Assembly: GCA_002366565.1 (NCBI GenBank)
Contig: DFBJ01000012.1
Span: forward strand, 494,950-558,949
Reading direction: 5' to 3'
Length of the DNA: 64,000 nt
Origin: Bacteriovoracaceae bacterium UBA3083
GTDB taxonomy: Bacteria; Bdellovibrionota; Bacteriovoracia; Bacteriovoracales; Bacteriovoracaceae
Shown here: positions 14,189 to 53,880 of the stretch, piece after piece
Layout of the letters: the number at the start of each line of letters is the position of its first letter
How positions within the stretch are numbered: position 1 is the first letter of the stretch
Position numbers and translations under genes: made by a program
The notes under the pieces: generated by a model
What the model saw: only the letters and a program-made list of their open reading frames with translations
Told to the model about the DNA's origin: nothing
Databases searched by the model: none

Positions 14189-14272
14189 TATTTTCTCCTA
14201 AGAATAATACTAATTTGTACTTACATAATTTCTAAGCTAGATTTGTAAGATTGATCCAACTATAATATCACA

Positions 14273-39157: not shown

Positions 39158-39179
39158 TATATTACATATTTGTAATATA
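39158..39179. promoter_or_regulatory. 9-bp perfect inverted repeat (tatattaca-tatt-tgtaatata), candidate MarR-type operator
   Basis: It ends 22 nt upstream of the regulator ATG (39202), overlapping the AT-rich -10 region of the lipid/ole operon promoter. Confidence 0.4.
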
Positions 39180-39201
39180 ACTTAATTTACAGGAACTTAT
39201 A

Positions 39202-39861
39202 ATGGATAATGGCCAAATTATAGAGCAAGCTTTGTTAGATGAGCTACCTGCCTTTGAGAACTTTCTTAACAGGATTGGTTTTAAAAGAATAGAAGGTTCA
39301 GTTTATGGACTTCTTGTTCTATCTCCTAACCCATTAACAAGTGTCGAAATTGAAAATACATTACAACTCTCTCAACCTGCAGTTTCAAATGCATTGAAAG
39401 TACTCACGCACTACGGAGCAGTAATATCTAGAGATACTAAAAGAGAAGGTCTAGATCGTCGTATAAAAGTTCACAGCGTAAAAGAAGACAGTCTCTCAAT
39501 TGTAGCTAGCGTTTTTAGAAAAAGAGAACAAGAAACAATTCAAGACTTTAAGCAAATGGCGATTAGACTTGAGAAGATATCAAGGGACCTATCATCGGAG
39601 AATGACCCTAGAAATAAGAGACTCAAATCAATTGTATCAACATGTGAAATTGCAGAGAGTGTCATAAGCTTTGTTGTTGAATTAACAAAGAGCAAGCTTC
39701 CAGAAGAATATCCACAAGTAATTAAACAACTCCCAAGGACATTACAACTGCTAACAAGTGGAGTTGTTCCTATGGCGAATTTAACAGATCAAGTCAAGAA
39801 AAGTTTAACAAGTAAATTAAAAGGTGGTCTTGAGAGACTATCAGGAGAAGTGACAAAATGA
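39202..39861 (+). CDS. winged-helix transcriptional regulator (MarR/GbsR-like)
   Basis: 219 aa. It has a wHTH segment (…LTSVEIENTLQLSQPAVSNALKVLTHYGAVISRDTKREGLDRRIKVH…). It is the first gene of the operon, and its stop overlaps the KAS start. Confidence 0.55.
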   Translation: MDNGQIIEQALLDELPAFENFLNRIGFKRIEGSVYGLLVLSPNPLTSVEIENTLQLSQPAVSNALKVLTHYGAVISRDTKREGLDRRIKVHSVKEDSLSIVASVFRKREQETIQDFKQMAIRLEKISRDLSSENDPRNKRLKSIVSTCEIAESVISFVVELTKSKLPEEYPQVIKQLPRTLQLLTSGVVPMANLTDQVKKSLTSKLKGGLERLSGEVTK

Positions 39862-41087
39862 AGCATAGAATTGTCATCACAGGTATCGGGCTAACAGCTC
39901 CAAATGGAAATAACCTAGAAGAGTTCAGAACTGCCCTCCTTGAAGGTAAGTCTGGTATTACTCATACAGAAGTAAGGCACATGGGAATCAAGGCCGCAGG
40001 ACTTTGTGATTTCGATGAGTCTAAGTACCAGTCACGTAAGACGAGAAAGAGAGGAACGAGAGTTGGAGCAATATCTATCTATTGTGCTAATGAGTCGATT
40101 GTTAATTCAAAACTAGACTGGGAAAATATAGATAAAGACAGAGTTGGTGTCTATCTTGGAATCACTGAACACGGAAACGTAGAAACAGAAAATGAAATCC
40201 ATGATCTATATCAAAATGATCTAAATACAGAGTTTTGGTCTCATCATCACAACCCTAGAACTGTTGCAAATAACCCTGCTGGTGAAGTAACTCTGAATCT
40301 AAGTATTACAGGCCCGCACTACACTATTGGTGCCGCTTGTGCTGCTGGTAATTTAGGAATTATTCAAGCTTGTCAGATGCTTCAACTCGAAGAAGTAGAT
40401 GTTGCTCTTGCGGGTGGAGTAAGTGAGTCACCTCAAACTTTTGGAATATTTGCCGCATTTGCAGCTCAAGGTGCTCTAGGTGAACACGAAGACCCTACCC
40501 TAGCAACACGTCCATTGGATATCGATAGAAACGGTATTGTAATCTCTGAAGGCGGAGCTATTTATACTCTTGAAAGATTAGATGACGCAATTAAGAGAGA
40601 CGCAGATATTATAGCTGAAGTTGTAGGCTTCCATTCTAATAGTGATGCGAGTGATTTTGTTCTTCCTAATACGGAAAGACAAATTCAGTGTATGAACAAA
40701 GCAATAGAAAAAGCAGGATTAAAAGTAGATGACATAGACATCGTAAGTCTTCATGCTACTGGAACAAAAATGGGAGATATCCAAGAGTGTGAAGCTGTTA
40801 GCCAAGTTTTTGGTTATAGCGAGAATACACATATCAACTGTGCAAAAGGATTTATTGGCCATGCTATGGGTGCAGCAGGTGCTCTTGAGCTTGCAGGGAA
40901 CATTCCGAGCTTCAAAGATGGTTATATACACCCATGTAAAAAGATCGAAAATATTGACCCAAAGTGTGACCTAAAGAATTTAGTTAATGGAGAAAAAGTA
41001 GAGAAAGAAGTCAACTACATCCTTAACAACTCTTTTGGAATGCTTGGGATAAACTCATCATTAATAGTTAAAAAATATACCCATTAG
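39858..41087 (+). CDS. beta-ketoacyl-ACP synthase, elongating type (FabF/FabB-like KAS I/II)
   Basis: 409 aa. It has an active-site Cys in GPHYTIGAACAAGN and the two His of the C-H-H triad (LHATGTKMGD, GHAMGAAGALE), with an N-terminal RIVITGIG. Confidence 0.85.
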   Translation: MKHRIVITGIGLTAPNGNNLEEFRTALLEGKSGITHTEVRHMGIKAAGLCDFDESKYQSRKTRKRGTRVGAISIYCANESIVNSKLDWENIDKDRVGVYLGITEHGNVETENEIHDLYQNDLNTEFWSHHHNPRTVANNPAGEVTLNLSITGPHYTIGAACAAGNLGIIQACQMLQLEEVDVALAGGVSESPQTFGIFAAFAAQGALGEHEDPTLATRPLDIDRNGIVISEGGAIYTLERLDDAIKRDADIIAEVVGFHSNSDASDFVLPNTERQIQCMNKAIEKAGLKVDDIDIVSLHATGTKMGDIQECEAVSQVFGYSENTHINCAKGFIGHAMGAAGALELAGNIPSFKDGYIHPCKKIENIDPKCDLKNLVNGEKVEKEVNYILNNSFGMLGINSSLIVKKYTH

Positions 41088-41097
41088 GAGGATCACA

Positions 41098-41352
41098 ATG
41101 GAAAAAGAACTAGTAAGAGAACATGTACTAAATATTATTGCTGACGTTGCACTAGATGACGACGTTACAACAATTGACGATGCTGTAGCACTAAGAGACC
41201 AATTAGATCTAGACTCTATGGACTTCTTAGACATCGTAATGGAACTCAAGAAAAGACATAAGATTGAGGTTCCTCAAGAAGATTATCCACAATTAGCAAG
41301 CATGAATAGTTGTGTAGAATACCTAACACCAAAGTTTGCAGCACACGCATAA
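41098..41352 (+). CDS. acyl carrier protein (dedicated)
   Basis: 84 aa, acidic, with a phosphopantetheine-attachment motif LDLDSMDFLDIV. Confidence 0.8.
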   Translation: MEKELVREHVLNIIADVALDDDVTTIDDAVALRDQLDLDSMDFLDIVMELKKRHKIEVPQEDYPQLASMNSCVEYLTPKFAAHA

Positions 41353-41404
41353 TTGATTTAAAGGCCACTTTCATAGTGGCCTATTCTTTTAGGAAGATGT
41401 TTAG

Positions 41405-42784
41405 ATGGAAAAGTACGACGTTATAATAATTGGAGCAGGAATGAGTGGAATGGCAGCTGCCATACGACTTGCAATGTTCGATAAAAAAGTTCTACTCCTA
41501 GAAAAACATGTCATTACAGGTGGCCTAAATAGTTATTACAAAAGAGCAAAAAGAGACTTCGACGTCGGTCTACATGCTCTGACAAACTATATGGAAAAGG
41601 GAGAAAAAAGAAAGCCTCTCTCAAAGCTTTTAAAACAATTAAGAGTTCCATATGATGACTTAAAGCTTTCACCGCAAAGACATTCCAAAATACTTTTTCC
41701 AGAAAAGTCACTTACATTCACAAATGACTTGAATGACTTTGCTCAAGAGATAGCGGACAATTTTCCTGACCAAGTAGATGGATTTAATAAACTTGTATCT
41801 CACATCACAGATTTCAGTGAAACAGCATTAGATAATGAACATATTCTAGCAAAAGATGTTGTTAGAAAATATATAACCAATGAAGAATTACTAGAAATGA
41901 TATTTTGTCCCCTATTGATCTATGGATCAGCTTGGGAAAATGACATGGACTTCTCTCAATTTGTAATCATGTTCAAAAGTATTTACATCGAAGGTTTTTC
42001 AAGACCTGAAGGTGGAGTTAGGACGATTATAGATATCTTATTAAAGAAACTTGAAGCTTTAGGCCAAGAGATTCGCTTTAGAAGTGAAGTTCAAAGTATT
42101 GAAACAGCAAATGGGAAAGTTGCAGGTGTTAGATTAAAGAATGGGGACTTCTTACAAGCAGATAAAGTTATCTCAAGTATGGGTTATCCTGAAACACTTA
42201 GCGTAGTTAGCGGTATAGCCCCTAAACAAAAGCCAGCAGTTGGAAAAATGACTTTCTGTGAGAGTATTCTAGTCCTTGATAAGAAACCTAAAGACCTTGG
42301 ACTTGATAGCACGATTATTTTCTATAACGATAGACCAAAGTACTTATACCGAGAACCAAAAGAACTATACGACCCTAAGTCAGCAGTGATTTGTTTTCCA
42401 AATAACTTCACTCATGATGACTTTGATGAAGGTTGGGTTCGTATTACAAATATGGCAAACTTTGATCTTTGGAATAAATTAGAGAGACCAGAGTATAAAG
42501 AGAAGAAGGAAGAGGTTTTTAAAGATGCCTGTTCATTAACAAAGAAGTTAATACCTTCTTGGGACGAAGAAGTTGTCTTTAAAGATATCTTCTCACCTAC
42601 TACCATAAAGAAATACACAGGGCACTTTGGCGGTACAGTGTACGGATCAACAGATAAAAGTCGAGACGGTTCTACTGAAGTACCTGGACTTTACCTTTGT
42701 GGAACAGATCAAGGATTTCTTGGAATTGTTGGCTCTATGTTATCTGGGATATCAATGGCCAACCTATATGGATTAATGGATTAA
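41405..42784 (+). CDS. FAD-dependent oxidoreductase of the phytoene-desaturase (CrtI/CrtD/retinol-saturase-like) family
   Basis: 459 aa. It has an N-terminal Rossmann dinucleotide motif (YDVIIIGAGMSGMAAA…LLLEKHVITGGLNSYY) and a C-terminal GT…G motif. It is paralogous to 52465..53880. Confidence 0.7.
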   Translation: MEKYDVIIIGAGMSGMAAAIRLAMFDKKVLLLEKHVITGGLNSYYKRAKRDFDVGLHALTNYMEKGEKRKPLSKLLKQLRVPYDDLKLSPQRHSKILFPEKSLTFTNDLNDFAQEIADNFPDQVDGFNKLVSHITDFSETALDNEHILAKDVVRKYITNEELLEMIFCPLLIYGSAWENDMDFSQFVIMFKSIYIEGFSRPEGGVRTIIDILLKKLEALGQEIRFRSEVQSIETANGKVAGVRLKNGDFLQADKVISSMGYPETLSVVSGIAPKQKPAVGKMTFCESILVLDKKPKDLGLDSTIIFYNDRPKYLYREPKELYDPKSAVICFPNNFTHDDFDEGWVRITNMANFDLWNKLERPEYKEKKEEVFKDACSLTKKLIPSWDEEVVFKDIFSPTTIKKYTGHFGGTVYGSTDKSRDGSTEVPGLYLCGTDQGFLGIVGSMLSGISMANLYGLMD

Positions 42785-42788
42785 AAAT

Positions 42789-43820
42789 ATGAAATATGAA
42801 AATGTAGCAATACACAGTTTTGATTACCTAGAGCCTGATGAGTTTCTAACATCAGACGACATTGAATCAAAGCTCTCACCTGTATACAAAAGACTCAATC
42901 TTCCATCAGGAAGACTAGAACTTATGACAGGAATTAAATCAAGAGGAATTTGGCCAAATGGAACGAGACCAAGTGACTTGTCTACACAGTCAGCTCAAAA
43001 ACTCCTCTCTAAGTCCAATGTAGATAAATCAGAGATAGGCCTACTAATTCATGCAAGTGTTTGTAGAGATTTTTTAGAACCATCAACTGCATCAGTTGTT
43101 CACCACAATTTAGAATTAAATGAAGACGCCATGATTTATGATCTATCTAACGCATGCTTGGGTGTTGTAAACGCAATGTCTATGGCCGCGAATATGATTG
43201 AACTAGGTCAGATAAAGTATGCTTTAATAGTTTCTGGTGAGAATGGAGGACCTCTCTTAACTCAAACCATTGATCATTTGAACACAGATTCAACTCTAAC
43301 GAGAAAATCAATTAAAAAGTACATTGCAAACTTAACAATTGGTTCAGCTTCAGTAGCATACTTACTTTGCCATAAAGACTTAGCCCCTGATGCCCCAAGA
43401 ATAATAGGAGGCGCTGTCTGTACTGATTCAAGTGCAAATATTCTATGTCAAGGAGATGGAGACACGACTTCTTTAATGATGGAAACAGACTCGGAAGAGT
43501 TATTAAAGCACGGACTAGAACTAGCGAAGAAGAATTGGAATAAAACAAAAGAAGCACTTGGCTGGAATAACTCTGATGTTGATTGGGTCATTGGACATCA
43601 GGTAGGAACAGCTCATGAGACACTCACAATGAAGGCGATGGAATTAAGTCAGCACAAAACTTATACAACATATGAAACATTAGGAAATACTGGTTCTGCA
43701 GCATTACCTATTACACTAGCAAAATTAAAAGAAACAAATAAAATTCAAAAGGGTGAGAAAATTGCTCTATTAGGCATTGGAAGTGGTTTAACTTCTATTA
43801 TGTTAGGAGTTGAATGGTGA
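42789..43820 (+). CDS. oleA: OleA, FabH-like thiolase catalysing head-to-head (non-decarboxylative Claisen) condensation of acyl thioesters
   Basis: 343 aa. Blocks match the Xanthomonas-type OleA as I recall it: LEPSTASVV, DLSNACLGVVNAM (active Cys), YALIVSGENG, APRIIGGAVCTDS, DWVIGHQVGTAHE, and the C-terminal GEKIALLGIGSGLTSIMLGVEW. Gene order is oleA-B-C-D. Confidence 0.8.
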   Translation: MKYENVAIHSFDYLEPDEFLTSDDIESKLSPVYKRLNLPSGRLELMTGIKSRGIWPNGTRPSDLSTQSAQKLLSKSNVDKSEIGLLIHASVCRDFLEPSTASVVHHNLELNEDAMIYDLSNACLGVVNAMSMAANMIELGQIKYALIVSGENGGPLLTQTIDHLNTDSTLTRKSIKKYIANLTIGSASVAYLLCHKDLAPDAPRIIGGAVCTDSSANILCQGDGDTTSLMMETDSEELLKHGLELAKKNWNKTKEALGWNNSDVDWVIGHQVGTAHETLTMKAMELSQHKTYTTYETLGNTGSAALPITLAKLKETNKIQKGEKIALLGIGSGLTSIMLGVEW

Positions 43821-44692
43821 AAGCAATAACAATACCAAGTAATTTAAAATCAGAGTATCCATTTACTCCAAAAACACTCACTCTAAAGTCAGGTCACAAA
43901 TTATCATATATTGATGAAGGGACAGGACCCGTTGTAATTATGGCCCATGGAAACCCTACTTGGTCATTTTATTATAGAAATGTAATCAAGAAGCTAAAAA
44001 ATAACTTCCGAGTAATTGTTCCAGATCATATCGGTTGTGGCCTATCAGATAAACCACAAGATTATGATTACACACTTAAGAATCATATCGATAATCTTGA
44101 AGAGTTAACTCAATCATTAAATATTAAAGACTTTAATATTATTGTTCACGACTGGGGTGGAGCAATTGGTATGGGTCTAGCGACAAGATACCCTGAAAAC
44201 TTAAAAAAAGCAGTCATATTAAATACTGCTGCTTTTACTTCAGATCTAATTCCAAAAACAATTAATATTTGTAAAAATCCTATCTTTGGTGAATGGCTTG
44301 TCAGAAAGTTTAATGCTTTTGCATGGCCTGCAACATTTATGGCAACCAATGTGGGATTAAGTAAAGAAGCAAAGCAAGGCTACCTACTTCCATATAATAA
44401 CTATAAGAATAGAATTGCCACAGCAAGATTTGTAAAAGATATTCCCATGACAAGTACACATCCAACTTGGAATACTCTTAAAGATATTGAAAATAAACTT
44501 CAATCTCTAGATTGTCCAAAGCTTATCCTCTGGGGGGAGAAAGACTTTTGTTTCAATATGAACTTCTATAACCGATGGGTTGAAATTTTCCCAAAGGCTT
44601 CTAAGAAAGTATTTAAGAATGCTGGACACTATGTTCTTGAAGATGCCAGAGATGAAATCAACGAAGATATTTTAAACTTCCTAAGTGAGTAA
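43814..44692 (+). CDS. oleB: OleB, alpha/beta-hydrolase (haloalkane-dehalogenase-like) beta-lactone decarboxylase
   Basis: 292 aa. It has the HGNPTWSFYY motif (haloalkane dehalogenase/epoxide-hydrolase HGxP), a nucleophile elbow VHDWGGAIGM, and a C-terminal GHY. It overlaps oleA by 7 nt. Confidence 0.75.
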   Translation: MVKAITIPSNLKSEYPFTPKTLTLKSGHKLSYIDEGTGPVVIMAHGNPTWSFYYRNVIKKLKNNFRVIVPDHIGCGLSDKPQDYDYTLKNHIDNLEELTQSLNIKDFNIIVHDWGGAIGMGLATRYPENLKKAVILNTAAFTSDLIPKTINICKNPIFGEWLVRKFNAFAWPATFMATNVGLSKEAKQGYLLPYNNYKNRIATARFVKDIPMTSTHPTWNTLKDIENKLQSLDCPKLILWGEKDFCFNMNFYNRWVEIFPKASKKVFKNAGHYVLEDARDEINEDILNFLSE

Positions 44693-44694
44693 CT

Positions 44695-46326
44695 ATGAAT
44701 ATTGCAGACCTATTAGTTAAAAGAGCAAATGAACAACCAGATAAACTGGCAATAAAAGCTCCGATTAGTAGAAATGCGGATGGAAGTTATAATTATGAAA
44801 GTAAAACTTTCAAAGAACTTCTAGCAACTACAAGATCTATCGCTAACGGTCTTAAGTCTAAAGGATTAGTTAGTGGAGATAAAGCAGTTGTCTTTGTAAA
44901 GCCAGGACTAGATTTTCCTGCTATCACCTTCGCACTCTTTTCGTTAGGGATTGTCCCTGTATTCATTGACCCAGGAATGGGTAAAGAGAACCTATTAAGA
45001 TCAATCAAGCAAGTTCAACCTCAGGCCTTAATCGCAGTACCGATTGTGCATTTTCTCAGGTTATTTAAAAGGGATACTTTTAAGTCTGTTAAGTGCTTTA
45101 TTACAACAGGATCTTTAACATGGCCTGGAATGTTTTCACTCAAGTCATTAAAAAAACTTCCGCCTGCAGAAATACAAACTAAAGTAAATGAAAATGAATT
45201 AGCAGCAATACTCTTTACTTCAGGAGGAACTGGAATACCTAAGGGTGTTGAATATACTCATAAGATATTTTCAAAACAAACAGAACTACTTCAAAACATA
45301 TTTTCATTAACTAGTGAAGACATAGATATTCCAGGATTCCCTCTCTTTGCTCTTTTTACAATTGCTATGGGAATGACTAGTTGTATTCCAGACATGGATC
45401 CATCTAGACCAGCTGATGCTGACCCGGCCAAACTTGTCCAAAACATACTTGATAATCAAGCTACTTTTGTTGCAGGTTCTCCAGCGATTTGGGAAAAGGT
45501 AGCTTCATATTGTAACGATAAAAAAATAACATTACCAAGTGTTAAGTATCTTGTGATGTTTGGTGCACCAGTAAGAAAAGAAGTTCACCAAAATTTTTCA
45601 AAAGTACTAACTAATGGAACAACCTATACTCCATACGGAGCAACAGAATCACTACCTGTAGCAAATATTTCAGGAAAGTACTTACTTGAAAAAACAGTTG
45701 ATCTATCTTCTAAGGGACGTGGGACATGTGTAGGGAAACCTATATCATCAATGGAAGTAAAAATAATTTCAATTACTGATGAAATACTCTCTACAGTAGA
45801 AGAAATGAAAGAGCTTAGAAATGGTCAGATTGGAGAAATTATTGTTCAAGGAGACACTGTTACTAAAAGTTATTTTGGTATGCCTGAAAAAACCGCTGAA
45901 GCTAAAATATTTGATGGAGATAAATTCTGGCACAGGATTGGAGATATAGGCTACCTAGATGATCAAGGGTATCTATGGTTCTGCGGAAGAAAGACTCATA
46001 GAGTGGAAACTGAAAATGAACTAATGAGTTCAATACAATGCGAATCAATATTTAATGAGCACCAGCTTATTGAAAAGACTGCCCTAGTTGGTGTCTATAG
46101 AGGCAAGAAATATCAAACTCCTGAATTAGTAGTTCAACTAAAAGATCCATCTAAGAAAAGTGCACAATTGAAAGAAGAACTAATAAGCATGGCAAGTACT
46201 CACCCTCATACAAAGAATATAAAGAAAATCTGGTACCACGATAAGTTCCCTGTAGATGTACGTCACAATATTAAAATTGATCGTCTAAAACTTCGGGATC
46301 TTGCTGAGAACGGAGATCTAACATGA
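44695..46326 (+). CDS. oleC: OleC, AMP-dependent synthetase/ligase (beta-lactone synthetase)
   Basis: 543 aa. It has the adenylation core motif FTSGGTGIPKGVEYTH and further ANL-superfamily motifs (YGATE, GDIGYLDDQGYLWFCGRKT). It starts 2 nt after oleB. Confidence 0.8.
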   Translation: MNIADLLVKRANEQPDKLAIKAPISRNADGSYNYESKTFKELLATTRSIANGLKSKGLVSGDKAVVFVKPGLDFPAITFALFSLGIVPVFIDPGMGKENLLRSIKQVQPQALIAVPIVHFLRLFKRDTFKSVKCFITTGSLTWPGMFSLKSLKKLPPAEIQTKVNENELAAILFTSGGTGIPKGVEYTHKIFSKQTELLQNIFSLTSEDIDIPGFPLFALFTIAMGMTSCIPDMDPSRPADADPAKLVQNILDNQATFVAGSPAIWEKVASYCNDKKITLPSVKYLVMFGAPVRKEVHQNFSKVLTNGTTYTPYGATESLPVANISGKYLLEKTVDLSSKGRGTCVGKPISSMEVKIISITDEILSTVEEMKELRNGQIGEIIVQGDTVTKSYFGMPEKTAEAKIFDGDKFWHRIGDIGYLDDQGYLWFCGRKTHRVETENELMSSIQCESIFNEHQLIEKTALVGVYRGKKYQTPELVVQLKDPSKKSAQLKEELISMASTHPHTKNIKKIWYHDKFPVDVRHNIKIDRLKLRDLAENGDLT

Positions 46327-47300
46327 AAATATTAGTTACAGGTGCTGGTGGATTTCTTGGTTACTATATTGCTAGAGATTTAAAGGCTCTAGGCCATGAA
46401 GTATATAATTTTTCTAGATCTCATCATAAAGACCTAGATGAACTGGCCATTACAACTAGACTTGGAAACTTAAACGACCCAGACTCAATCGACAAAGCAC
46501 TCGATAAAATAGAAGCCGTTTTTCATGTTGCTGGCAAAGTAGCGATGTGGGGAAAATGGGAAGACTTCTATCAAACCAATACTATTGGAACAAAAAATCT
46601 AGTAGATGCGTGCCTAAAAAAAGGTATACAAAAATTCATTTACACATCAACACCTAGTGTTGTCTTTGGAAGTGGAGATATAGAAAATGGTGATGAAACA
46701 CTAGAGTACCCAAATGAATTTCTTAGCCTCTATGCTAAATCGAAAATGTTAGCAGAGAAATATGTACTTCAGAAAAACTCTAAAGAGTTTCTAACATGTG
46801 CAATAAGACCACATCTTATTTTTGGTCCTAGAGATAAGAATATTATTCCAAGACTACTTGAGGCAGCTAAAAAAGAGAAATTAAAGAAAATAGGAAGCGG
46901 TAATAATCTAGTTGATATTATTTATGTAGAAAATGCGGCCAAAGCACATATTCAGGCATTTCAAAGTATTACACCAGACTCTCCTATTTCGGGATCACCT
47001 TACTTCATAGGACAAGAAGCTCCTGTTAATCTATGGGACTTTATCAACAAAATTCTTAAGGCCCATGGTCAAAAAACTGTATCAAAAAGTATTTCTGTTA
47101 AATCTGCTTATTCAATAGGAGCTGTAATAGAATTTATATTAAAGTTTCTTAGAGTCTGGAACGTTCATCCACCCATGACAAGATTTGTCGCTCTTCAATT
47201 AGGGAAGAGTCATTACTTTTCTCATAAGAAAGCAAAAAATGACTTTGACTATAGTCCAGACATAACTATAGATGAGGCAATTTCAAGAATCACTCCATAG
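46323..47300 (+). CDS. oleD: OleD, NAD(P)-dependent 3beta-hydroxysteroid-dehydrogenase/epimerase-family reductase (2-alkyl-3-ketoacid reductase)
   Basis: 325 aa. It has an N-terminal Rossmann motif (MKILVTGAGGFLGYYIARDL) and an SDR-extended YxxxK (YAKSK). It overlaps the oleC stop (ATGA). Confidence 0.75.
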   Translation: MKILVTGAGGFLGYYIARDLKALGHEVYNFSRSHHKDLDELAITTRLGNLNDPDSIDKALDKIEAVFHVAGKVAMWGKWEDFYQTNTIGTKNLVDACLKKGIQKFIYTSTPSVVFGSGDIENGDETLEYPNEFLSLYAKSKMLAEKYVLQKNSKEFLTCAIRPHLIFGPRDKNIIPRLLEAAKKEKLKKIGSGNNLVDIIYVENAAKAHIQAFQSITPDSPISGSPYFIGQEAPVNLWDFINKILKAHGQKTVSKSISVKSAYSIGAVIEFILKFLRVWNVHPPMTRFVALQLGKSHYFSHKKAKNDFDYSPDITIDEAISRITP

Positions 47301-49407
47301 AGGCGGGACTTCTTAGATTGTTGTCTCGTCTGAAATTATCAACAATACCTAGCCCATCAAAACGACCTTCATTAAAGTATGTGATAAATGGTGAACCTTC
47401 ATTCGTATAAGCTTCGAAGTTTCCATAATAATAAACATTGTCATAACCAAAGAAAGAAAGAATTTGTGTCTTATTCTTATGTTCTAAATAAATAGTTTGA
47501 ATAATATCTTTCAGTCTCCATAGAGGAACAGCGGCCATATCTTGTGCAACTGATTTCTTAGAATATTCCTCCATACACTTTCTTCTCTTACGGCTTCGTT
47601 TAAAAAAGCTATATTTCTTAGTTTTATTTTTGCAGTAAGTATAGAGGCTTGCAGTAAAGTCATTAAATGCCCACTCAGCGTAGAACTTATTTGAAGAAAC
47701 TTTCATTTCTCTAAGACAACTATTAAAAAGATTTCTAAACCACTTAAAAAAACCACTCTTCTTAGCTCCACACATACTCTCATAACGAGATTTCATCTCT
47801 GACTGCGAGTACCCTAATAAATGATATAGGCCATCCCTATTAATTTTATAGTCACCATTAATCTTAACAGGTCCAATCAATTGGTCTTGTTCAAAAAGTT
47901 TTATCGCTAAGGGATCAACCCCTGAGTAATTATTAAGAACTTCAAGTGCTGCATTCTTATGAGACTTCTTTGTTACTGTATTTGTTTTGGCCGTATAAAA
48001 ATTATGAGAGAATCCGATAGAAACAGATTCTTCTTTTTTCATATCTATATCACCCTCATTAGCAATGAGGTTCTCATTAGCAGAATACTCAACAATCACT
48101 TTCTTAGAGTCACTACTATCTTTATTAATTATAGAATCTAACTTTAAAAGAGATTTAACTAAGACAGCAACAAGTCTTGAAAAGACATTTTGCTTATATT
48201 TTATTTTTTCAAAGTAATGCTTGAAAAATCTATGAACATTCCCATCTTTAACAATTTCTATTTGTTGAGTACTTGCCTCTTTTTGGCCTCCCCAAAATAA
48301 AAGGCCATACTTAGATTCTTTTTGCTCAGATTTTCTCTGTTCTAAAGAGACGATATTATCTCGAAGAGCATATACATCTGACTTTTGCCCATTAAGTATT
48401 CTTTCAACCTGTTGGGAGTAGTAAGTATCTTTCTTAAGTTTCTCAAAGTCTTCTTCATAAAAAGTTAAATACGTTTTTTCAGAATCCTCAAGAGTGTAAT
48501 TGAAATCATATTTAAGCAATGTCATTTGTAATAATTTTAAGAACTCTATCCCAACGCTTGCTGAAACGCCGACACTAGCAGACTTAACTTTTTCCATAGT
48601 TATACGAAGTCGTTCTTTCTCAGTAGATTTCTCTTCATCATGTATTGCTTGAATATCCACACGTGCTAAATTTTCATAACTAGCTAGAACGCCAGCACTT
48701 CCAAATATTGGCCCATAGATAGGTGCTCCAGCGATAGCACCTGCTTTTAGAGATATTGCATCTTCTTTTTGAAGAAATTCATACTCATTTAAATTTAAAT
48801 ATTCTTTATTAGAGAATTTAGTGAAGGCCAGAAATAACTTATCAAAGTTGAGAGTTAAACCTTCCATATAGCTATTAGCGAAGTGAACTGACCTAAAAGT
48901 TCTCCTAAATGAGATTCCTGCGAAAGCAGCATATTGCGCTTCAGAGAAATCAACTATGCCCTGATCCTTTAGGTTAGTTAATAAATTTGCGGCATTGATA
49001 TCAATAATAAATTCATCTGAAACAATCCACTTATCATCACTAAATAAATCTGGAGCAACAGTTCTTCCAGCAATTACTGTAAAATCAAGAAAGTCGTGAT
49101 TGTACTTAATCCCGATATTATTAAGGCCACCAAATACTGTAGTATTCTGACTACTGAGAACGTTAGCGGCCTGCCTCTGCCCTATAGAGTCATAGGTCGT
49201 AGAGAATTCATTAAGAATACTTCGATAAAGAGCATTATCACTTGAGAGCTCGTAACCAGAACTCTTCAAGCCGATAGAATAGTCTCCATATAGAGAATGG
49301 AGCTTTTCTTCATCTAAAATTTGAAAATGTTCGAATTTCTCACCAGCTAATACTTTAGTGGATAGATATAAGACCACACTTATAAGAACATAATGCACCA
49401 ATTTCAT
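47290..49407 (-). CDS. large secreted hypothetical protein (start placed at MKLVHYV… signal peptide)
   Basis: The ORF runs to 49476, but a signal peptide begins at the internal Met (MKLVHYVLISVVLYLSTKVLAG). No recognisable catalytic motifs. Its 3' end overlaps the oleD 3' end convergently by 11 nt. Confidence 0.45.
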   Translation of the reverse strand: MKLVHYVLISVVLYLSTKVLAGEKFEHFQILDEEKLHSLYGDYSIGLKSSGYELSSDNALYRSILNEFSTTYDSIGQRQAANVLSSQNTTVFGGLNNIGIKYNHDFLDFTVIAGRTVAPDLFSDDKWIVSDEFIIDINAANLLTNLKDQGIVDFSEAQYAAFAGISFRRTFRSVHFANSYMEGLTLNFDKLFLAFTKFSNKEYLNLNEYEFLQKEDAISLKAGAIAGAPIYGPIFGSAGVLASYENLARVDIQAIHDEEKSTEKERLRITMEKVKSASVGVSASVGIEFLKLLQMTLLKYDFNYTLEDSEKTYLTFYEEDFEKLKKDTYYSQQVERILNGQKSDVYALRDNIVSLEQRKSEQKESKYGLLFWGGQKEASTQQIEIVKDGNVHRFFKHYFEKIKYKQNVFSRLVAVLVKSLLKLDSIINKDSSDSKKVIVEYSANENLIANEGDIDMKKEESVSIGFSHNFYTAKTNTVTKKSHKNAALEVLNNYSGVDPLAIKLFEQDQLIGPVKINGDYKINRDGLYHLLGYSQSEMKSRYESMCGAKKSGFFKWFRNLFNSCLREMKVSSNKFYAEWAFNDFTASLYTYCKNKTKKYSFFKRSRKRRKCMEEYSKKSVAQDMAAVPLWRLKDIIQTIYLEHKNKTQILSFFGYDNVYYYGNFEAYTNEGSPFITYFNEGRFDGLGIVDNFRRDNNLRSPASME

Positions 49408-49720
49408 CTCACTACCTTTAACAGAAATCGTGGGACTGATGATTAGTGATCTTACGTGCAGTTTAACAATCAGCAATTCTTGAATTCTATCACAGACTTT
49501 TCGGTAAGCTCAATTGTTGACTTAATAGATAAGATACTCAAAATGAGAAAATCCTACGTTTTAAACTATTTACACAATTGTCTGCTAAAATAATGAATAA
49601 GAATTCAGAGACTTACGTGATAGAAATTATCTATCGAAACTTAAATAAAACCGATTTTATATATATTGCCAATTCGAGTAACCTATTCAAAGAAACAAAC
49701 GCAAACCTTAGGAGGCGAAA

Positions 49721-50462: not shown

Positions 50463-50492
50463 CTCGCCTTTACAGGCGAGGTTTTCTTTTAG
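50463..50492 (+). terminator. rho-independent terminator of Prx-Grx gene
   Basis: The hairpin is cctcgcc-tttacag-ggcgagg followed by ttttctttt. The U-tract overlaps the stop codon of the convergent fabI-like gene. Confidence 0.6.
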
Positions 50493-51283
50493 AGATTATC
50501 AGCAACAGTATTAACCACATCACTATCAAAATGATTGCAGCTCATGCCAGCATCTACCTTTATCCCAGTAGCATTTATTCCACTAGAAAGAGGGCTTAGT
50601 AAAAAAGCTATAGTATTTGCAACTTCTACTGTTTTTAAATTTTCTTTTCTTAAAGTTAATTTTTCTGCAAATAAGTAGTTATTTATATAACCTGGAATTC
50701 CAGCAGAAGCAGAAGTTTTAAGTGGCCCAGAACAAACCGCATTACATCTGACTCTTGATTTTAAACTAAGAGACTTTGCAAGGTATGCTACAGTTGCATC
50801 TAATGTTGCCTTTATAGGTCCCATATATCCATAGCTTGTTGCTCTAGTATCTGAAATAGATACTGTTACAATAGATGCATTTTCATCAAATGACGATGAA
50901 AGGGCATTTGATAGAGACACTAATGAGAATGAAGAGATATTTGTTGCTTGAAGGTAGTCAGCAAGTTTAGTTTCATGAAATGGTTTGATCCCTTCAGAAT
51001 AATTCGCAAAAGCAATTGAGTGAAGAAAGCCATTAATCTTTACACCTAGTTCACTAATACTTTTTCCAAAATCTTCAATGGCCTGAGAATCCTCAACATC
51101 AAGAATATATATTTGAGATTCGGGAAATAGTTTTTGAACTTTCTCTTTATGATCAGGAGATTGAACTGTGAAAATTAAATTAGATCCTGCATCACTAAGT
51201 ATTTTTGCACTGTGATAGGCAACACTCTTTCTATTTGCAACTCCTGAAATAACAAAAGTTTTATTTTTAAATCCAAAATCCAT
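50489..51283 (-). CDS. fabI: enoyl-[ACP] reductase, FabI-type (NADH)
   Basis: 264 aa. The N-terminal VISGVANRKSVAYHSAKIL resembles E. coli VTGVASKLSIAYGIAQAM. The catalytic Tyr/Lys segment YGYMGPIKATLDA resembles YNVMGLAKASLEA. Confidence 0.8.
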   Translation of the reverse strand: MDFGFKNKTFVISGVANRKSVAYHSAKILSDAGSNLIFTVQSPDHKEKVQKLFPESQIYILDVEDSQAIEDFGKSISELGVKINGFLHSIAFANYSEGIKPFHETKLADYLQATNISSFSLVSLSNALSSSFDENASIVTVSISDTRATSYGYMGPIKATLDATVAYLAKSLSLKSRVRCNAVCSGPLKTSASAGIPGYINNYLFAEKLTLRKENLKTVEVANTIAFLLSPLSSGINATGIKVDAGMSCNHFDSDVVNTVADNL

Positions 51284-51708
51284 TATTTTTCCTCAATTAA
51301 AGCGCAGCTAAACTCAATGGCCATAACAACTTTACCATTAACTGTAGAGCGAGCTTTCATATAGTACGCATTTGAAATTTGATCTATTAATGAAACATCC
51401 ATGATGAGTTCATCACCAGGTTTTACAAAATTTTTAAATTTTGCACTATTAACTTTAGTAACAACACCAAGCCCACTTCCTTCCATTGTCGCCATTAGTA
51501 GTGCTCCAGACTGAAAAGATGCTTCTTGCAGTAAAACACCTGGCATAATAGGATTTCCAGGAAAATGTCCTTTGAAGAAATCTTCATCACCAGTTAAAGT
51601 TAATGATGTCTTTATTGAACCTTCGCCTCTTTCAATAACTTTATCAACAAAGAGAAATGGAGGTTTTTGCGGTAAAAGCTCTAGTACTTCATTTGAAAAT
51701 TTACTCAT
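51283..51708 (-). CDS. 3-hydroxyacyl-ACP dehydratase, FabZ/FabA-like hot-dog
   Basis: 141 aa. It has the GHFPGNPIMPGVLLQEASFQ motif (catalytic His…Glu of FabZ). Its start overlaps the FabG stop. Confidence 0.75.
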   Translation of the reverse strand: MSKFSNEVLELLPQKPPFLFVDKVIERGEGSIKTSLTLTGDEDFFKGHFPGNPIMPGVLLQEASFQSGALLMATMEGSGLGVVTKVNSAKFKNFVKPGDELIMDVSLIDQISNAYYMKARSTVNGKVVMAIEFSCALIEEK

Positions 51709-52454
51709 TACAGTCCACCAGTTATTTCTAAAGAAGTCCCTGTAATATAACCTGCATGCTCACTACTAAGAAATAAAACAGCGTTGGCCACTTCTTCAAC
51801 TTTACCAAATCTTCTTAAAGGAACTTGTTTTTTATATTCCTTAACTTGATCCGCTGGTAGATCTGCAATCAACTCTGTCTCTATGAACCCAGGACAGATA
51901 TTATTTACTGTTATTCCTTTTTTACCAACTTCCTTTGAGAGTGATTTAGAGAGTGCTACTTGACCTGCTTTTGAAGCTGCGTAATTTGCTTGACCTGAAA
52001 GTCCAAGAGCTCCACCTACTGAACTCATATTTACAACTCTACCGTAACGATTCTTCATCATTAAAGGTATAGACATTTTAGTCATTAGGAATGTTCCTTT
52101 TAAGTTTACATCCATAACACTATTCCAATCTTCTGTTGGCATAAGAGCTAAGACATTATCCTTTCTAATTCCAGAGTTATTAACAAGGATATCAACTTTT
52201 TGATATTCTGATTCAACATAGCTGTAAAACTCTTGAACTTGCTCTTCTTTTGAAACATCAAACTTACGAAGGTCAATATTCTTTCCAAGTTCTCCAAGAG
52301 ACTCCTTAAAGTTATTTGCTGCTTCATCATTAGAAGTATATGTAGCAATTACAGTTGCACCATGCTCAAGAAAAGCTGTAGTCACACCTCTTCCAATACC
52401 TCTTGTTCCACCTGTTACGATTACGACTCTATTTTCAAAATTAAAATTCATCAT
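51708..52454 (-). CDS. 3-oxoacyl-ACP reductase (FabG-type SDR)
   Basis: 248 aa. It has TGGTRGIGRG, NNSG, and the catalytic S…YAASKAG motif (YxxxK). Confidence 0.8.
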   Translation of the reverse strand: MMNFNFENRVVIVTGGTRGIGRGVTTAFLEHGATVIATYTSNDEAANNFKESLGELGKNIDLRKFDVSKEEQVQEFYSYVESEYQKVDILVNNSGIRKDNVLALMPTEDWNSVMDVNLKGTFLMTKMSIPLMMKNRYGRVVNMSSVGGALGLSGQANYAASKAGQVALSKSLSKEVGKKGITVNNICPGFIETELIADLPADQVKEYKKQVPLRRFGKVEEVANAVLFLSSEHAGYITGTSLEITGGL

Positions 52455-52464
52455 TATTTATCAC

Positions 52465-53880
52465 CTATTTAGAAAGAAACGTTTCTACTTCATGGGACTG
52501 AATTATCCCGTAATTTGCAGCACCAAGCCACCCTGACATTATTATCCCTACTGAACCGGAGTGAAAAAGCCCTTCTACCTGCTTATGCATCTCCATACTT
52601 ATAGGGAGCCCTTCAAACTTTGTTCCAAAGCTTGCACCTTTATTGTGATGTGTATACTTCTCAACAGTGAGAGGAGTTGAGCAATCAATGTAGTCTATTT
52701 TATCTCGTACTCCTGGAATAATTTTCTCTAGAGTTACAAGAGCTCTCTCGATCGTAAATTGCTTTTTTTCTAGATACTCTTCCTTAGATAGGTTAACCCA
52801 ATCTTCATAACGAGCATTACTAGATGAGACAACAGCATACCTTCCATCTCTATCCTCTCTCATCTCAGGATAATAAACAGAGAAAGTCTGACTTCCTACC
52901 TTTGGCGAAAGAATCAAATCAGTATTAAAGTCTTTGTCATCAGAATAGAAAACAAGCTCACCAATGTCTGGTATAGACTCACCTTTCTTAATTCCCATAA
53001 AGACTTGGCAACTTGAAGTGTTTAATCTAACTTTCTTTGCTTTCTCTACATAAGTCGGATCAAAATTCTCTTCCCCAGCTAACTTAAAAACTGTACTTAA
53101 GAGATTAGAATTAGAAAGAACAGATTTTGCCTTTATTAACTTTCCACCAAGAGTAACGCCTTGAACTTTTTTATTCTCAACAACAATTTCATCAACTTTT
53201 GAATGAAGCTTTATATCGACTCCATTTTTAACAAGCTCATCTTTCATCATCGAAATAAGCTTATCAGTACCACCTTGGAATATATAAACACCTTTGCTCA
53301 TAAAATTTGAGAAAACGATCCCATAAGTAATCGCAGGATCTTCAAGGGTAGAACCATTTGCATAAACAATTGGCTCCATCAGAAATCTGTGTACATCATT
53401 TCGACCAGGAAAGAACTTTTCAAAGAGCTCTCTATTAGTCATACCACTATCGTCATAAAAATTCATGGCAGCGAGATAATCAAAGAACCCGACAACAACG
53501 TCTTTTTCTAGATTAAAAGTCTCTGTTAATGTTTTTATATAATGATCTTTAGTGAAATCTGTTTCAATATTAAACTGAGGATTAGAGAATTTAACACTTT
53601 TAACTTGAACTATTCGACTAGCAATTTCTTTTGACCAATACTTTCTACATGTCTTAATCATTCCGACAGGAAATCCATGAAGAGAAACATCAAAGATATG
53701 ATCTCCGGCCTGCCTCTTAAACCAAGTAGCAAAACCACCAAGCTTATTATGTGATTCAAGAAGTAGAACACTTCTTCCATTACGAGCTAATTTATTTGCG
53801 GCAGTCATCCCTGCAAGGCCTGAACCAACAATAATAACTTCGTAATCTTTTGTAATTTGATCTTTCTTTTTGAGTAGCAT
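52465..53880 (-). CDS. FAD-dependent oxidoreductase, phytoene-desaturase-like (paralog of 41405..42784)
   Basis: 471 aa. The N-terminal YEVIIVGSGLAGMTAANKL…LLLESHNKLGG aligns with the paralog, and a C-terminal FAD motif is present. Confidence 0.7.
   Translation of the reverse strand: MLLKKKDQITKDYEVIIVGSGLAGMTAANKLARNGRSVLLLESHNKLGGFATWFKRQAGDHIFDVSLHGFPVGMIKTCRKYWSKEIASRIVQVKSVKFSNPQFNIETDFTKDHYIKTLTETFNLEKDVVVGFFDYLAAMNFYDDSGMTNRELFEKFFPGRNDVHRFLMEPIVYANGSTLEDPAITYGIVFSNFMSKGVYIFQGGTDKLISMMKDELVKNGVDIKLHSKVDEIVVENKKVQGVTLGGKLIKAKSVLSNSNLLSTVFKLAGEENFDPTYVEKAKKVRLNTSSCQVFMGIKKGESIPDIGELVFYSDDKDFNTDLILSPKVGSQTFSVYYPEMREDRDGRYAVVSSSNARYEDWVNLSKEEYLEKKQFTIERALVTLEKIIPGVRDKIDYIDCSTPLTVEKYTHHNKGASFGTKFEGLPISMEMHKQVEGLFHSGSVGIIMSGWLGAANYGIIQSHEVETFLSK

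Follow-up and report, generated by a model that had tools for sequence, protein, structure and literature searches.

The window, a stretch of 64,000 nucleotides of Bacteriovoracaceae DNA, carries eight plus-strand ORFs between 39202 and 47300 that encode, in order, a winged-helix regulator (Reg), a KAS, an ACP, a flavoenzyme (FAD1), OleA, OleB, OleC, and OleD (Table 1). Neighboring ORFs overlap or abut, with junctions from Reg to OleD of −4, +10, +52, +4, −7, +2, and −4 nt, and would form a single operon, with the caveat of a hairpin between ACP and FAD1. A sequence-only reading had described these eight co-directional, overlapping or near-abutting genes, and we found them at the coordinates that it gave, with intact catalytic motifs; as to the extent of the unit, however, it missed the FabG/FabZ/FabI/FAD2 half at 50489–53880. 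These minus-strand FAS-like genes and FAD2 belong to the same conserved module as KAS-ACP-FAD1.

Table 1. Features of the ole locus and its surroundings (window coordinates)
Feature	Position	Strand	Length	Remark
Candidate operator, 19-bp imperfect palindrome ATATTACATATTTGTAATA	39159..39177	+		inverted repeat
Winged-helix (TrmB/MarR/MreA-like) regulator	39202..39861	+	219 aa	4-nt overlap with KAS gene
FabF-like elongating beta-ketoacyl-ACP synthase (KAS)	39858..41087	+	409 aa	
Stand-alone acyl carrier protein (ACP)	41098..41352	+	84 aa	PF00550 match
Terminator-like or stabilizing hairpin	41362..41382	+		in 52-nt ACP-FAD1 spacer
FAD1, CrtI/CrtD/CrtISO-superfamily FAD oxidoreductase	41405..42784	+	459 aa	
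OleA, non-decarboxylative Claisen-condensing thiolase	42789..43820	+	343 aa	
OleB, beta-lactone decarboxylase, haloalkane-dehalogenase-like alpha/beta hydrolase	43814..44692	+	292 aa	
OleC, olefin beta-lactone synthetase, AMP-forming	44695..46326	+	543 aa	
OleD, 2-alkyl-3-oxoalkanoate reductase, 3beta-HSD-type SDR	46323..47300	+	325 aa	
Secreted, probably outer-membrane beta-barrel-like protein	47290..49410	−	about 705 aa	module membership uncertain
FabI-like enoyl-ACP reductase	50489..51283	−	264 aa	final gene of second half
FabZ-like 3-hydroxyacyl-ACP dehydratase	51283..51708	−	141 aa	PF07977 match
FabG-like 3-oxoacyl-ACP reductase	51708..52454	−	248 aa	
FAD2, second CrtI-superfamily flavoenzyme	52465..53880	−	471 aa	

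In profile searches, the regulator gave weak matches to Pfam TrmB and MarR_2 and to NCBIfam MreA, all below cutoff, and it is kept upstream of KAS in Bacteriovoracales loci only (n = 21). The palindrome ATATTACATATTTGTAATA lies 25 nt upstream of its start codon, and the window contains a single copy of the palindrome core, TATTACA-N4-TGTAATA, where 0.04 copies would be expected. Of 20 related loci, 17 have a variant with up to 4 mismatches in the 150 nt preceding the regulator gene, against a background rate of 0.002 per 150 nt. Judging from sequence, this candidate operator may be bound by the regulator, which as the first gene product would probably control the operon in Bacteriovoracales through the conserved palindrome. 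The spacer between ACP and FAD1 has a folding energy of −15.3 kcal/mol; comparably structured spacers occur at Halobacteriovorax-type, Nitrospinota, and Chloroflexota loci, and the junction is 15 nt or shorter in most other Bacteriovoracales.

The putative outer-membrane protein gene is convergent with oleD, which it overlaps by 11 nt. A Pfam search with the protein returned zero matches, and its 98 homologs, where named, are all from Bacteriovoracales. Its AF2 model (pLDDT 80) has long antiparallel strands and resembles outer-membrane barrels only weakly in fold (TM about 0.2). The gene follows oleD in one Bacteriovoracales subclade and is missing from another.

Gene identities and active sites

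Family profile scores and catalytic residues agree with the gene identities proposed from sequence alone. OleA scores 428 bits on NF006720/PRK09258 (cutoff 285), and its best PDB match is Xanthomonas campestris OleA (251 bits, 39% identity), with which it has in common the Glu/Cys/His/Asn tetrad (E97/C123/H270/N300), including the OleA-specific Glu. We rejected FabH as an identity for this protein, whose score against any FabH does not exceed 85 bits and which groups with OleA, as had been proposed. OleB scores 168 bits on haloalkane-dehalogenase models, below cutoff, and best matches the alpha/beta-fold hydrolases 8CKP and 8OOH; its HGNP motif, Asp113 (in HDWGG), and His272 are intact, and in the compared loci, it always lies between OleA and OleC. 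OleC exceeds the NF006754 cutoff (617 versus 478 bits) and contains the adenylation motif TSGGTGIPKG, and OleD has the motifs GAGGFLG and Y137xxxK141 and scores 201 bits on PF01073. Because OleC (500 bits on OlefBLtnSynXan, 481 bits on OlefBLtnSynShew) and OleD (333 and 330 bits on its two models, where 580 is required) fall below the equivalog cutoffs of the Xanthomonas and Shewanella types and are about as far from one type as from the other, they form a third lineage. The OleA encoded at Halobacteriovorax marinus locus L004 is 85% identical to the one here, and a cloned H. marinus OleA proved active in vivo in 2020 (PMC7064751; strain not matched to L004). Through that activity, the ole part of the system is already known, and ole genes in this predator are not unexpected, contrary to the sequence-only reading.

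The FAS-like genes are more divergent from their reference models. KAS retains the catalytic triad C161/H299/H335, and its best PDB matches are FabF structures (about 200 bits); it scores 292 bits on TIGR03150 fabF against a cutoff of 494. ACP, with a phosphopantetheine site at Ser40 (DSM), reaches 41 of the 66 bits required and is below all NCBIfam ACP cutoffs, which puts both proteins well under the housekeeping FabF and AcpP cutoffs. The FabI-like protein scores 166 bits on FabI models (cutoff 370). FabG (290 versus 298 bits on TIGR01830; 260 bits on the flexirubin FlxB model) and FabZ (111.7 versus 113 bits on NF000582) nearly reach theirs; FabZ finds FabZ structures in the PDB, and its orthologs in related loci have a precomputed ApeI-like Pfam match.

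The best NCBIfam match of FAD1, a carotenoid-isomerase/CrtD-like protein, is carotenoid isomerase (124 bits, cutoff 587), and the top Foldseek PDB matches of its AF2 model (pLDDT 83) are CrtD 4REP and CrtI 4DGK, at 17–18% identity. FAD1 is 47–62% identical to orthologs in four other phyla and is a member of a discrete, uncharacterized family. FAD2, 27% identical to FAD1, scores 107 bits on carotenoid isomerase and 96 bits on CrtD, both far below cutoff, and likewise represents a discrete family (orthologs 38–55% identical, next full-length relatives at most 34%). Since both are only 17–18% identical to any solved CrtI-family enzyme, they may act as desaturases, isomerases, or saturases. Their location between ACP and FabG, together with a natural FAD2-FabZ fusion on one contig elsewhere, suggests that they work on ACP-bound chains.

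A widespread module and its linkage to ole

Module matches numbered several hundred across species genomes and about 8000 protein clusters. In Nitrospinota and Chloroflexota, KAS-ACP-FAD1-FAD2-FabG-FabZ-FabI is a contiguous seven-gene module, with FAD2 directly after FAD1 at 14 of 14 and 10 of 10 loci, respectively, and part of it is present on one Planctomycetota contig. Identity across the seven genes in Nitrospinota, Chloroflexota, and Smithella is 45–76%; between phyla, KAS is 59–76% identical and the FabI-like protein 43–68% identical to its module counterparts. A cross-phylum comparison of the neighbors of module loci yielded zero further conserved neighbors, and in Dehalococcoidales, the module is accompanied by its own PPTase. 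This contiguity, the lack of other cross-phylum neighbors, and the PPTase indicate that the module is a unit.

OleA directly follows FAD1 at all informative loci of the Bacteriovoracales type (45/45) and the Smithella type (7/7), an adjacency that locks KAS, ACP, and the flavoenzyme to ole in evolution. In Smithella, the module encloses oleABCD in a co-directional run of 11 genes (KAS-ACP-FAD1-OleABCD-FAD2-FabG-FabZ-FabI), upstream of which lie two additional KAS paralogs and a gene with a B12-binding domain. In a divergent genome, at about 40% identity, oleABCD likewise adjoins FAD2-FabG-FabZ-FabI. In Dehalococcoidia, an OleA-family gene (NF006720, 452 bits, ECHN tetrad) heads the module and is its entire ole part, and at locus L020, OleA alone is joined to the module. 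As a module, the FAS-like genes are widespread independently of ole, which is an optional addition. The conserved linkage is in line with the earlier suggestion of a FAS-like line dedicated to ole; the wider module had been overlooked.

Comparison with known systems

The oleABCD genes resemble those of X. campestris and Stenotrophomonas maltophilia in their four enzyme families and A-B-C-D order. A regulator, KAS, ACP, and flavoenzyme of their own precede them. To our knowledge, a KAS/ACP/flavoenzyme module beside canonical ole loci has never been described, and none was found in the literature searched. The closest functional analog is the Pfa plus OleABCD system of Shewanella and Photobacterium (C31:9 hentriacontanonaene), in which a dedicated ACP-linked synthase feeds OleA a special acyl-ACP: 31:9 arises when Pfa synthase hands 16:4-ACP straight to OleA (PMC6463001). 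Pfa, however, is of type I, a multidomain PKS/FAS whose FabA-like DH domains form cis double bonds, whereas the system here consists of discrete type II enzymes, with two CrtI-family flavoproteins as the only double-bond candidates. The pfa genes are absent from the 64-kb window.

Desulfotalea psychrophila produces C31:8 and C31:9 without Pfa, and its FASII clusters include phytoene-dehydrogenase-like genes (PMC2649909). Such clusters in Kuenenia stuttgartiensis and D. psychrophila, proposed as an anaerobic PUFA/PUHC route, combine FabF paralogs, ACP, and FabZ with amine-oxidase/CrtI-like flavoproteins (Rattray et al. 2009; Javidpour et al. 2016), the likeness of DP2405/DP2406 being by description; unlike the present locus, they include radical-SAM genes and have never been tied to ole genes. 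We rejected the anammox proteins Kuste3336 and Kuste3607 as FAD1/FAD2 orthologs (24–28% identity, no nearer than Pantoea agglomerans CrtI). CrtI, CrtD, and CrtISO have the fold and N-terminal FAD-binding motif in common with FAD1 and FAD2, which differ in scoring far below carotenoid equivalog cutoffs and in having ACP-dependent enzymes as genomic partners; carotenoid genes are absent near FAD1 and FAD2. UfaD, reportedly a CrtI-like fatty-acyl desaturase of Rhodobacter furan fatty-acid biosynthesis (Lemke et al. 2020, J Biol Chem), is a precedent for a phytoene-desaturase-like flavoprotein that desaturates a fatty acyl chain. It is said to act on phospholipid-bound methylated acyl substrates and not to be clustered with KAS/ACP or ole genes.

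A proposed route to a long-chain olefin

We moderately favor a dedicated type II synthase that would supply a flavoenzyme-modified, probably unsaturated acyl-ACP to OleABCD for conversion to a long-chain olefin; a special, polyene or otherwise unsaturated substrate for OleA is plausible. Against this, the second half lies on the opposite strand with two unrelated genes in between, the hairpin parts ACP from FAD1, and FabG and FabZ score near housekeeping cutoffs. A full KR/DH/ER set alone would yield saturated chains, and we know of no report of polyunsaturated fatty acids or hydrocarbons in Bacteriovorax, Halobacteriovorax, or Nitrospina, which also counts against it.

It is unlikely, though worth weighing, that the two parts are independent neighbors, the module making a modified fatty acid of its own that goes into membrane or other lipids and OleABCD turning bulk-pool acyl-CoAs into mono- to tri-unsaturated C27–C31 olefins as in Xanthomonas, so that co-localization reflects only co-regulation of envelope lipids. 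Module loci without nearby oleBCD in Nitrospinota (14) and Chloroflexota (10) imply that the module has its own function, one FAD2 homolog is solitary, and purified OleA enzymes accept acyl-CoA in vitro (PMC7064751). In Pfa systems, however, OleA uses acyl-ACP in vivo, and independence fits poorly with the ole genes inserted within the module's operon in Smithella, the FAD1-OleA junction unchanged at 52 of 52 loci, and the OleA genes joined to the module without other ole genes in Dehalococcoidia and L020. The near-cutoff scores of FabG and FabZ would suit a primary fatty-acid synthase of small-genome predators clustered with ole by chance, which we consider very improbable: KAS, ACP, and FabI fall far under their equivalog cutoffs, the cluster is without fabH, fabD, and acc, the same seven genes recur across Nitrospinota, Chloroflexota, and Smithella, and a dedicated PPTase is paired with the module in Dehalococcoidales.

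Two further possibilities concern the late steps. FAD1 and FAD2 could take the long-chain cis-olefin released by OleB, which is hydrophobic like phytoene, as their substrate, with desaturation or isomerization beside the central double bond giving a conjugated polyene. Their closest structural relatives work on C40 hydrocarbons, FAD1 abuts oleA, and FAD2 abuts oleD in Smithella, but such tailoring is quite unlikely, given that FAD1 and FAD2 are adjacent and ACP/FabG-flanked in lineages without ole genes within 10 kb and that the FAD2-FabZ fusion links FAD2 to the ACP-bound elongation cycle. The sequence-only reading had also named a beta-lactone lipid as a possible product. OleA, OleC, and OleD are indeed shared beta-lactone machinery (PMC7064751), and a pathway halting at OleC would give a lipstatin- or nocardiolactone-like lipid; this we find hardly credible because OleB is intact, with its nucleophile Asp113, His272, and HGNP, and is translationally coupled between oleA and oleC, whereas known beta-lactone clusters are without oleB.

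With a dedicated synthase feeding OleA, KAS, ACP, and FAD1 from the plus strand and FAD2, FabG, FabZ, and FabI from the minus strand, 3 kb downstream, would elongate an ACP-bound chain, while FAD1 and FAD2 would modify the intermediates, most likely by installing or isomerizing C=C bonds without O2. The Smithella and Dehalococcoidia lineages are strict anaerobes, and the occurrence of the module in them argues for this O2 independence. OleA would then join two module-made acyl thioesters by head-to-head condensation, giving a 2-alkyl-3-ketoacid for reduction by OleD; OleC would close the beta-lactone ring, and decarboxylation by OleB would yield a long-chain, probably polyunsaturated cis-olefin.

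Genes of the ole operon and of the module

Eight plus-strand ORFs form a putative operon encoding, in order, a winged-helix regulator, a FabF-like beta-ketoacyl-ACP synthase (KAS), an acyl carrier protein (ACP), a CrtI-superfamily FAD oxidoreductase (FAD1) and OleA, OleB, OleC and OleD, with successive junctions of -4, +10, +52, +4, -7, +2 and -4 nt. The sequence-only reading had proposed this operon with these gene identities, and ORF calls, profile searches of each ORF and a motif check, in which all catalytic motifs of the operon enzymes were intact, bear it out. The eight-gene run was right, but that reading overlooked a minus-strand half, beginning about 3 kb downstream of oleABCD, that encodes a second CrtI-superfamily oxidoreductase (FAD2) and FabG-, FabZ- and FabI-like proteins at junctions of +10, -1 and -1 nt. 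With KAS and ACP, the three Fab-like proteins make up a complete elongation cycle; below, the module denotes KAS-ACP-FAD1-FAD2-FabG-FabZ-FabI. GC content is about 35% (0.34–0.37 across the whole length), and we found no island signature in the base composition of the window.

Features of the operon, the second half of the module and their neighbors
Feature	Position	Strand	Remarks
PaaZ-type bifunctional aldehyde dehydrogenase/MaoC hydratase	35558-37597	+	upstream of operon
Palindrome	39159-39177		ATATTACATATTTGTAATA, 19 bp
Operon, regulator to oleD	39202-47300	+	eight ORFs
Hairpin	41362-41382		after ACP gene
~705-aa protein	47290-49476	minus	probable true start 49410 (728 aa if full ORF); signal-peptide-like N-terminus
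Peroxiredoxin-glutaredoxin hybrid	49721-50452	+	adjoins module
FabI-like	50489-51283	minus	166 bits vs 370 cutoff
FabZ-like	51283-51708	minus	111.7 bits vs 113 cutoff
FabG-like	51708-52454	minus	290 bits vs 298 cutoff
FAD2	52465-53880	minus	CrtI-family flavoprotein; 27% identical to FAD1
MXAN_5453-family protein, RND efflux permease, MscS/MscK-like channel	53993-59136	minus	directly upstream of FAD2

OleA scores 428 bits on NF006720 (cutoff 285) and 118 bits on the fabH model TIGR00747, below its cutoff of 292; it gives 251 bits against X. campestris OleA structures versus at most 85 bits against any FabH. Its E97, C123, H270 and N300 align with Glu117, Cys143, His285 and Asn315 (X. campestris numbering), of which Glu117 is OleA-specific, and this tetrad is kept in all 25 aligned sequences, so that the choice between OleA and FabH, on which the earlier interpretation hung, came out for OleA. 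The gene is directly trailed by oleB, oleC and oleD; a previous screen of 74 OleAs took flanking by at least two of these as its criterion and included the Halobacteriovorax marinus enzyme and one from Bacteriovorax (PMC7064751). The H. marinus OleA, 38% identical to XcOleA, was active there in hydrolysis of p-nitrophenyl hexanoate in E. coli, and the KAS, ACP and flavoenzyme neighbors of ole were not discussed (PMC7064751). The OleA encoded at a genome locus named H. marinus (L004) is 85% identical to that of the window, which is predicted to join two long acyl thioesters by a Claisen condensation of the non-decarboxylative kind.

OleB, encoded between oleA and oleC, is a haloalkane-dehalogenase-like alpha/beta hydrolase (HGNP at residue 45, Asp113 in HDWGG, His272 in GHY) whose nearest PDB relatives are two alpha/beta-fold hydrolases (8CKP, 8OOH), with haloalkane dehalogenases coming next. 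OleC exceeds the NF006754 cutoff (617 bits vs 478), falls below those of the Xanthomonas-type (500 vs 900) and Shewanella-type (481 vs 850) olefin beta-lactone synthetase models, and has intact adenylation motifs. OleD has a Rossmann motif and YxxxK, and two OleD models are by far its best matches (333 and 330 bits, cutoff 580); its gene context fits OleD.

Upstream of the operon, the PaaZ-type gene is kept in H. marinus, and the RND gene beyond FAD2 is not conserved beside the module in other loci. The regulator matches TrmB, MarR and MreA profiles, all weakly. The palindrome lies 25 nt upstream of its gene, and 17 of 20 related loci have a variant of it ahead of the regulator gene (background 0.002 per 150 nt), making it the candidate operator. 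After the ACP gene, the window and other Halobacteriovorax-type loci carry a stable hairpin (spacers of 45–80 nt); most Nitrospinota and Chloroflexota loci have structured ACP-FAD1 spacers of 95–400 nt, and most other Bacteriovoracales have junctions of at most 15 nt. This hairpin or spacer may be a point at which expression changes along the operon. No Rfam family matched at 35–56 kb of the window.

Convergent with oleD, overlapping it by 11 nt, is the gene for a ~705-aa protein with no Pfam match and 98 homologues, every named one from Bacteriovoracales. Its AF2 model (pLDDT 80) has many long antiparallel strands and weakly matches outer-membrane barrels (TM about 0.2). The gene follows oleD in one Bacteriovoracales subclade and is missing from another; a 707-aa ORF after oleD in a further locus (L085) proved unrelated. 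The protein could be an envelope protein tied to the lipid, or its position could be mere synteny.

Conservation of the module across phyla

A scan with the FAD1 alignment, using one genome per species, confirmed 576 of 600 stretches among the matches listed, which, with two peptide patterns used per gene, corresponds to at least ~290 loci. We mapped the window proteins onto the best 80 of these, reaching 10 kb to either side. Within this set, all 14 Nitrospinota loci hold the seven genes in one uninterrupted run on a single strand, and so do all 10 Chloroflexota loci, as far as FAD2 coming next after FAD1 shows; a Planctomycetota contig carries FAD1-FAD2-FabZ-FabI. Dehalococcoidia have an OleA-family gene (NF006720, 452 bits, ECHN tetrad) ahead of the module set, together with an AhpD-like gene and a PPTase, and in one metagenome-assembled genome (L020) oleA sits between FAD1 and FAD2. 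Neither has oleBCD within 10 kb, and a long-chain ketone or beta-keto acid is the predicted product there, or else OleA has another role. The full Glu/Cys/His/Asn tetrad is present in these module-attached proteins (L020, 11383-12677; a Dehalococcoidales locus, L066, 7193-8242; and other Dehalococcoidia loci).

The joining of KAS, ACP and flavoenzyme to ole recurs in other Bacteriovoracales and in Smithella, which answers the synteny question left by the sequence-only reading. In Smithella, oleABCD lies between FAD1 and FAD2, giving an 11-gene co-directional run. Bacteriovoracales carry the FabI-FabZ-FabG(-FAD2) half beyond the ole genes in opposite orientation; the layout of Bacteriovorax stolpii CP030035 is that of the window. 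In all 45 informative Bacteriovoracales-type loci and all 7 of Smithella type (again among the best 80 of at least ~290), the gene next after FAD1 is oleA. A more divergent genome (~40% identity) likewise has oleABCD together with FAD2-FabG-FabZ-FabI. Identities across phyla are 59–76% for KAS, 47–62% for FAD1 and 51–65% for FAD2. Clustering of all flanking ORFs yielded no further cross-phylum neighbor such as a thioesterase or acyltransferase. In a quick neighbor-joining tree, Smithella-type OleAs (L019-L026; 61–63% identical to window OleA) nest within the Bacteriovoracales clade, which suggests that the combined cluster moved laterally between Desulfobacterota and Bdellovibrionota.

Individual loci depart from these arrangements. 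In an uncultured bacterium (L081) the order is OleABCD-FAD1-FAD2-FabG without nearby KAS, ACP, FabZ or FabI, and oleD is separated from FAD1 by a Fic/HTH toxin-antitoxin-like pair (8689-9758) encoded on the opposite strand. Upstream of the module in one Smithella genome (L019, 1172-6008), on the opposite strand, are a B12-binding-domain protein and two more KAS paralogues, 25–30% identical to the module KAS, resembling the FabF-paralogue/B12-radical-SAM clusters of Kuenenia and Desulfotalea. Beside the peroxiredoxin-glutaredoxin hybrid of the window, we noted a rubrerythrin near the module of a Nitrospina (L059, 15269-15757) and, in L066, an AhpD/CMD-family gene (13986-14483) flanked by FabZ and FabI; such differing peroxide- and redox-defense genes may fit an oxidation-prone unsaturated product, or may be coincidence.

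The two flavoenzymes

FAD1 best matches the carotenoid isomerase profile, at 124 bits against a cutoff of 587, and FAD2 reaches 107 (cutoff 587) and 96 (cutoff 550) on carotenoid models. Neither protein classes as a carotenoid CrtI, CrtD or CrtISO: scores are far under the cutoffs, no crt genes were found near either gene in the window, and the fold alone is common. That fold is seen in the FAD1 model (pLDDT 83), whose best matches are CrtD 4REP, CrtI 4DGK and two structural-genomics oxidoreductases, at 17–18% identity. FAD1 shares 89% identity with its counterpart in Halobacteriovorax sp. JY17, which places the window in a Halobacteriovorax. A deltaproteobacterial FAD1, used to look for a link to Desulfotalea psychrophila DP2405 and DP2406, matches at least 7960 clusters (90% identity level) at E <=1e-50; the few organism-named ones among the matches listed are Dehalococcoidia or Chloroflexi. 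FAD2 is a discrete family, with orthologues 38–55% identical and the next full-length relatives at 34% or less.

We also compared the anammox "phytoene desaturases" Kuste3336 and Kuste3607, with sequences from Table S6 of PMC4790861, where neither gave lycopene in place of CrtI in vivo. At 24–28% identity they are not orthologues of FAD1 or FAD2, this being the distance between FAD1 and FAD2 as paralogues (27%) and to P. agglomerans CrtI (24–26%).

A single metagenome contig (JGI Ga0393997_0022012; L084, 2209-4086) encodes a 625-aa fusion of a FAD2 orthologue, at 52% identity, to a FabZ/ApeI-like dehydratase; FabI-like and radical-SAM genes come next. This Rosetta-stone-type evidence suggests that FAD2 works with an ACP-dependent dehydratase. 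FAD1 and FAD2 also stand between ACP and FabG in gene order, and the two observations combined suggest that the flavoenzymes act on ACP-bound cycle intermediates and not on the finished hydrocarbon. Smithella and Dehalococcoidia are strict anaerobes, and the presence of the module in both points to O2-independent chemistry.

A proposed acyl supply for OleABCD

We consider it somewhat better than an even call that the module builds an acyl chain, modified by its flavoenzymes, that OleABCD condenses to an olefin; the substrate channelling, flavoenzyme chemistry and product in this proposal we infer from the genes. The module, using an ACP of its own, would elongate the chain, double bonds would be introduced or isomerized by FAD1 and FAD2, and OleA would condense two such acyl thioesters; OleD would reduce the condensation product, OleC would lactonize it, and OleB would decarboxylate the lactone to a long-chain, probably polyunsaturated, olefin. 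That the lactone is instead the end product seems highly improbable, OleB being intact. We think it rather unlikely that module and ole genes are independent neighbors: Smithella has ole inserted within the module, and oleA comes next after FAD1 in all the informative Bacteriovoracales-type and Smithella-type loci above. Tailoring of the finished olefin by the flavoenzymes is unlikely too, since the fusion and the placement of FAD1 and FAD2 speak for ACP-bound substrates.

On the ground covered, the 64-kb window and 10 kb to either side of related loci, it seems improbable that the FAS-like genes are the housekeeping FAS. KAS (292 bits vs a 494 equivalog cutoff), ACP (41 bits vs 66–71) and FabI are under the cutoffs for housekeeping FabF, AcpP and FabI equivalogs, and FabG and FabZ fall just under theirs. 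The proposed route would differ from Pfa-Ole, in which the multidomain PKS/FAS pfaABCDE feeds OleA; in vivo, OleA receives 16:4-ACP from the Pfa synthase, and 31:9 results (Allemann et al., PMC6463001). We found no multidomain KS-AT-ACP-KR-DH genes in 86 related loci or, within the window, among the ORFs examined at 34.5–59.8 kb. The route would differ as well from the "ladderane-type" FASII clusters of anammox bacteria and Desulfotalea, which contain radical-SAM enzymes; we found no radical-SAM genes at 35–59 kb of the window, and such genes flank the loci L059 and L084.

More tentatively, FAD1 and FAD2 may be flavin-dependent enzymes that install or isomerize cis double bonds on ACP-bound intermediates, the module then being a third bacterial route to polyunsaturated acyl chains, independent of both O2 and Pfa; this we regard as possible but doubtful. 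For example, a trans-2 bond could be isomerized to cis-3 by one enzyme and to cis-2 by the other, or both could be quinone-linked desaturases. If so, hydrocarbons of the C31:8/C31:9 type in bacteria without Pfa would be accounted for by the module coupled to OleABCD, and an as yet unseen unsaturated lipid (a ketone where OleA stands alone) would be predicted in Nitrospinota and marine Dehalococcoidia. Both C31:8 and C31:9 were found in Pfa-less Desulfotalea psychrophila by Rattray et al. (PMC2649909), who in 2009 proposed FASII clusters with phytoene-dehydrogenase-like genes as an anaerobic PUFA route. Anammox bacteria had no pure culture or genetic system in which that proposal could be put to the test (PMC2649909), and the desaturase step of ladderane biosynthesis is still a proposal in a 2026 review (PMC13459092).

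The ole genes themselves are already known. What is new is the existence of the seven-gene module as such and the conserved wiring of ole to this widespread, uncharacterized type II synthase, whose two flavoenzymes belong to the CrtI family; our literature search found no paper on the module or its joining with ole. Among its carriers, Nitrospina and Dehalococcoidia are ecologically important groups. If the module does supply OleABCD, it would be a substrate-supply unit setting which hydrocarbon the Ole pathway makes, useful for engineering designer olefins, and an abundant unnamed enzyme set of at least about 8000 protein clusters would gain a testable role. The 2009 proposal that FASII, extended by an anaerobic desaturase-type step, makes polyunsaturated chains would be revived in an experimentally tractable form; Bacteriovorax stolpii and H. 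marinus are cultured organisms. More speculatively, a dedicated, regulated hydrocarbon could affect the predator's envelope during prey invasion.
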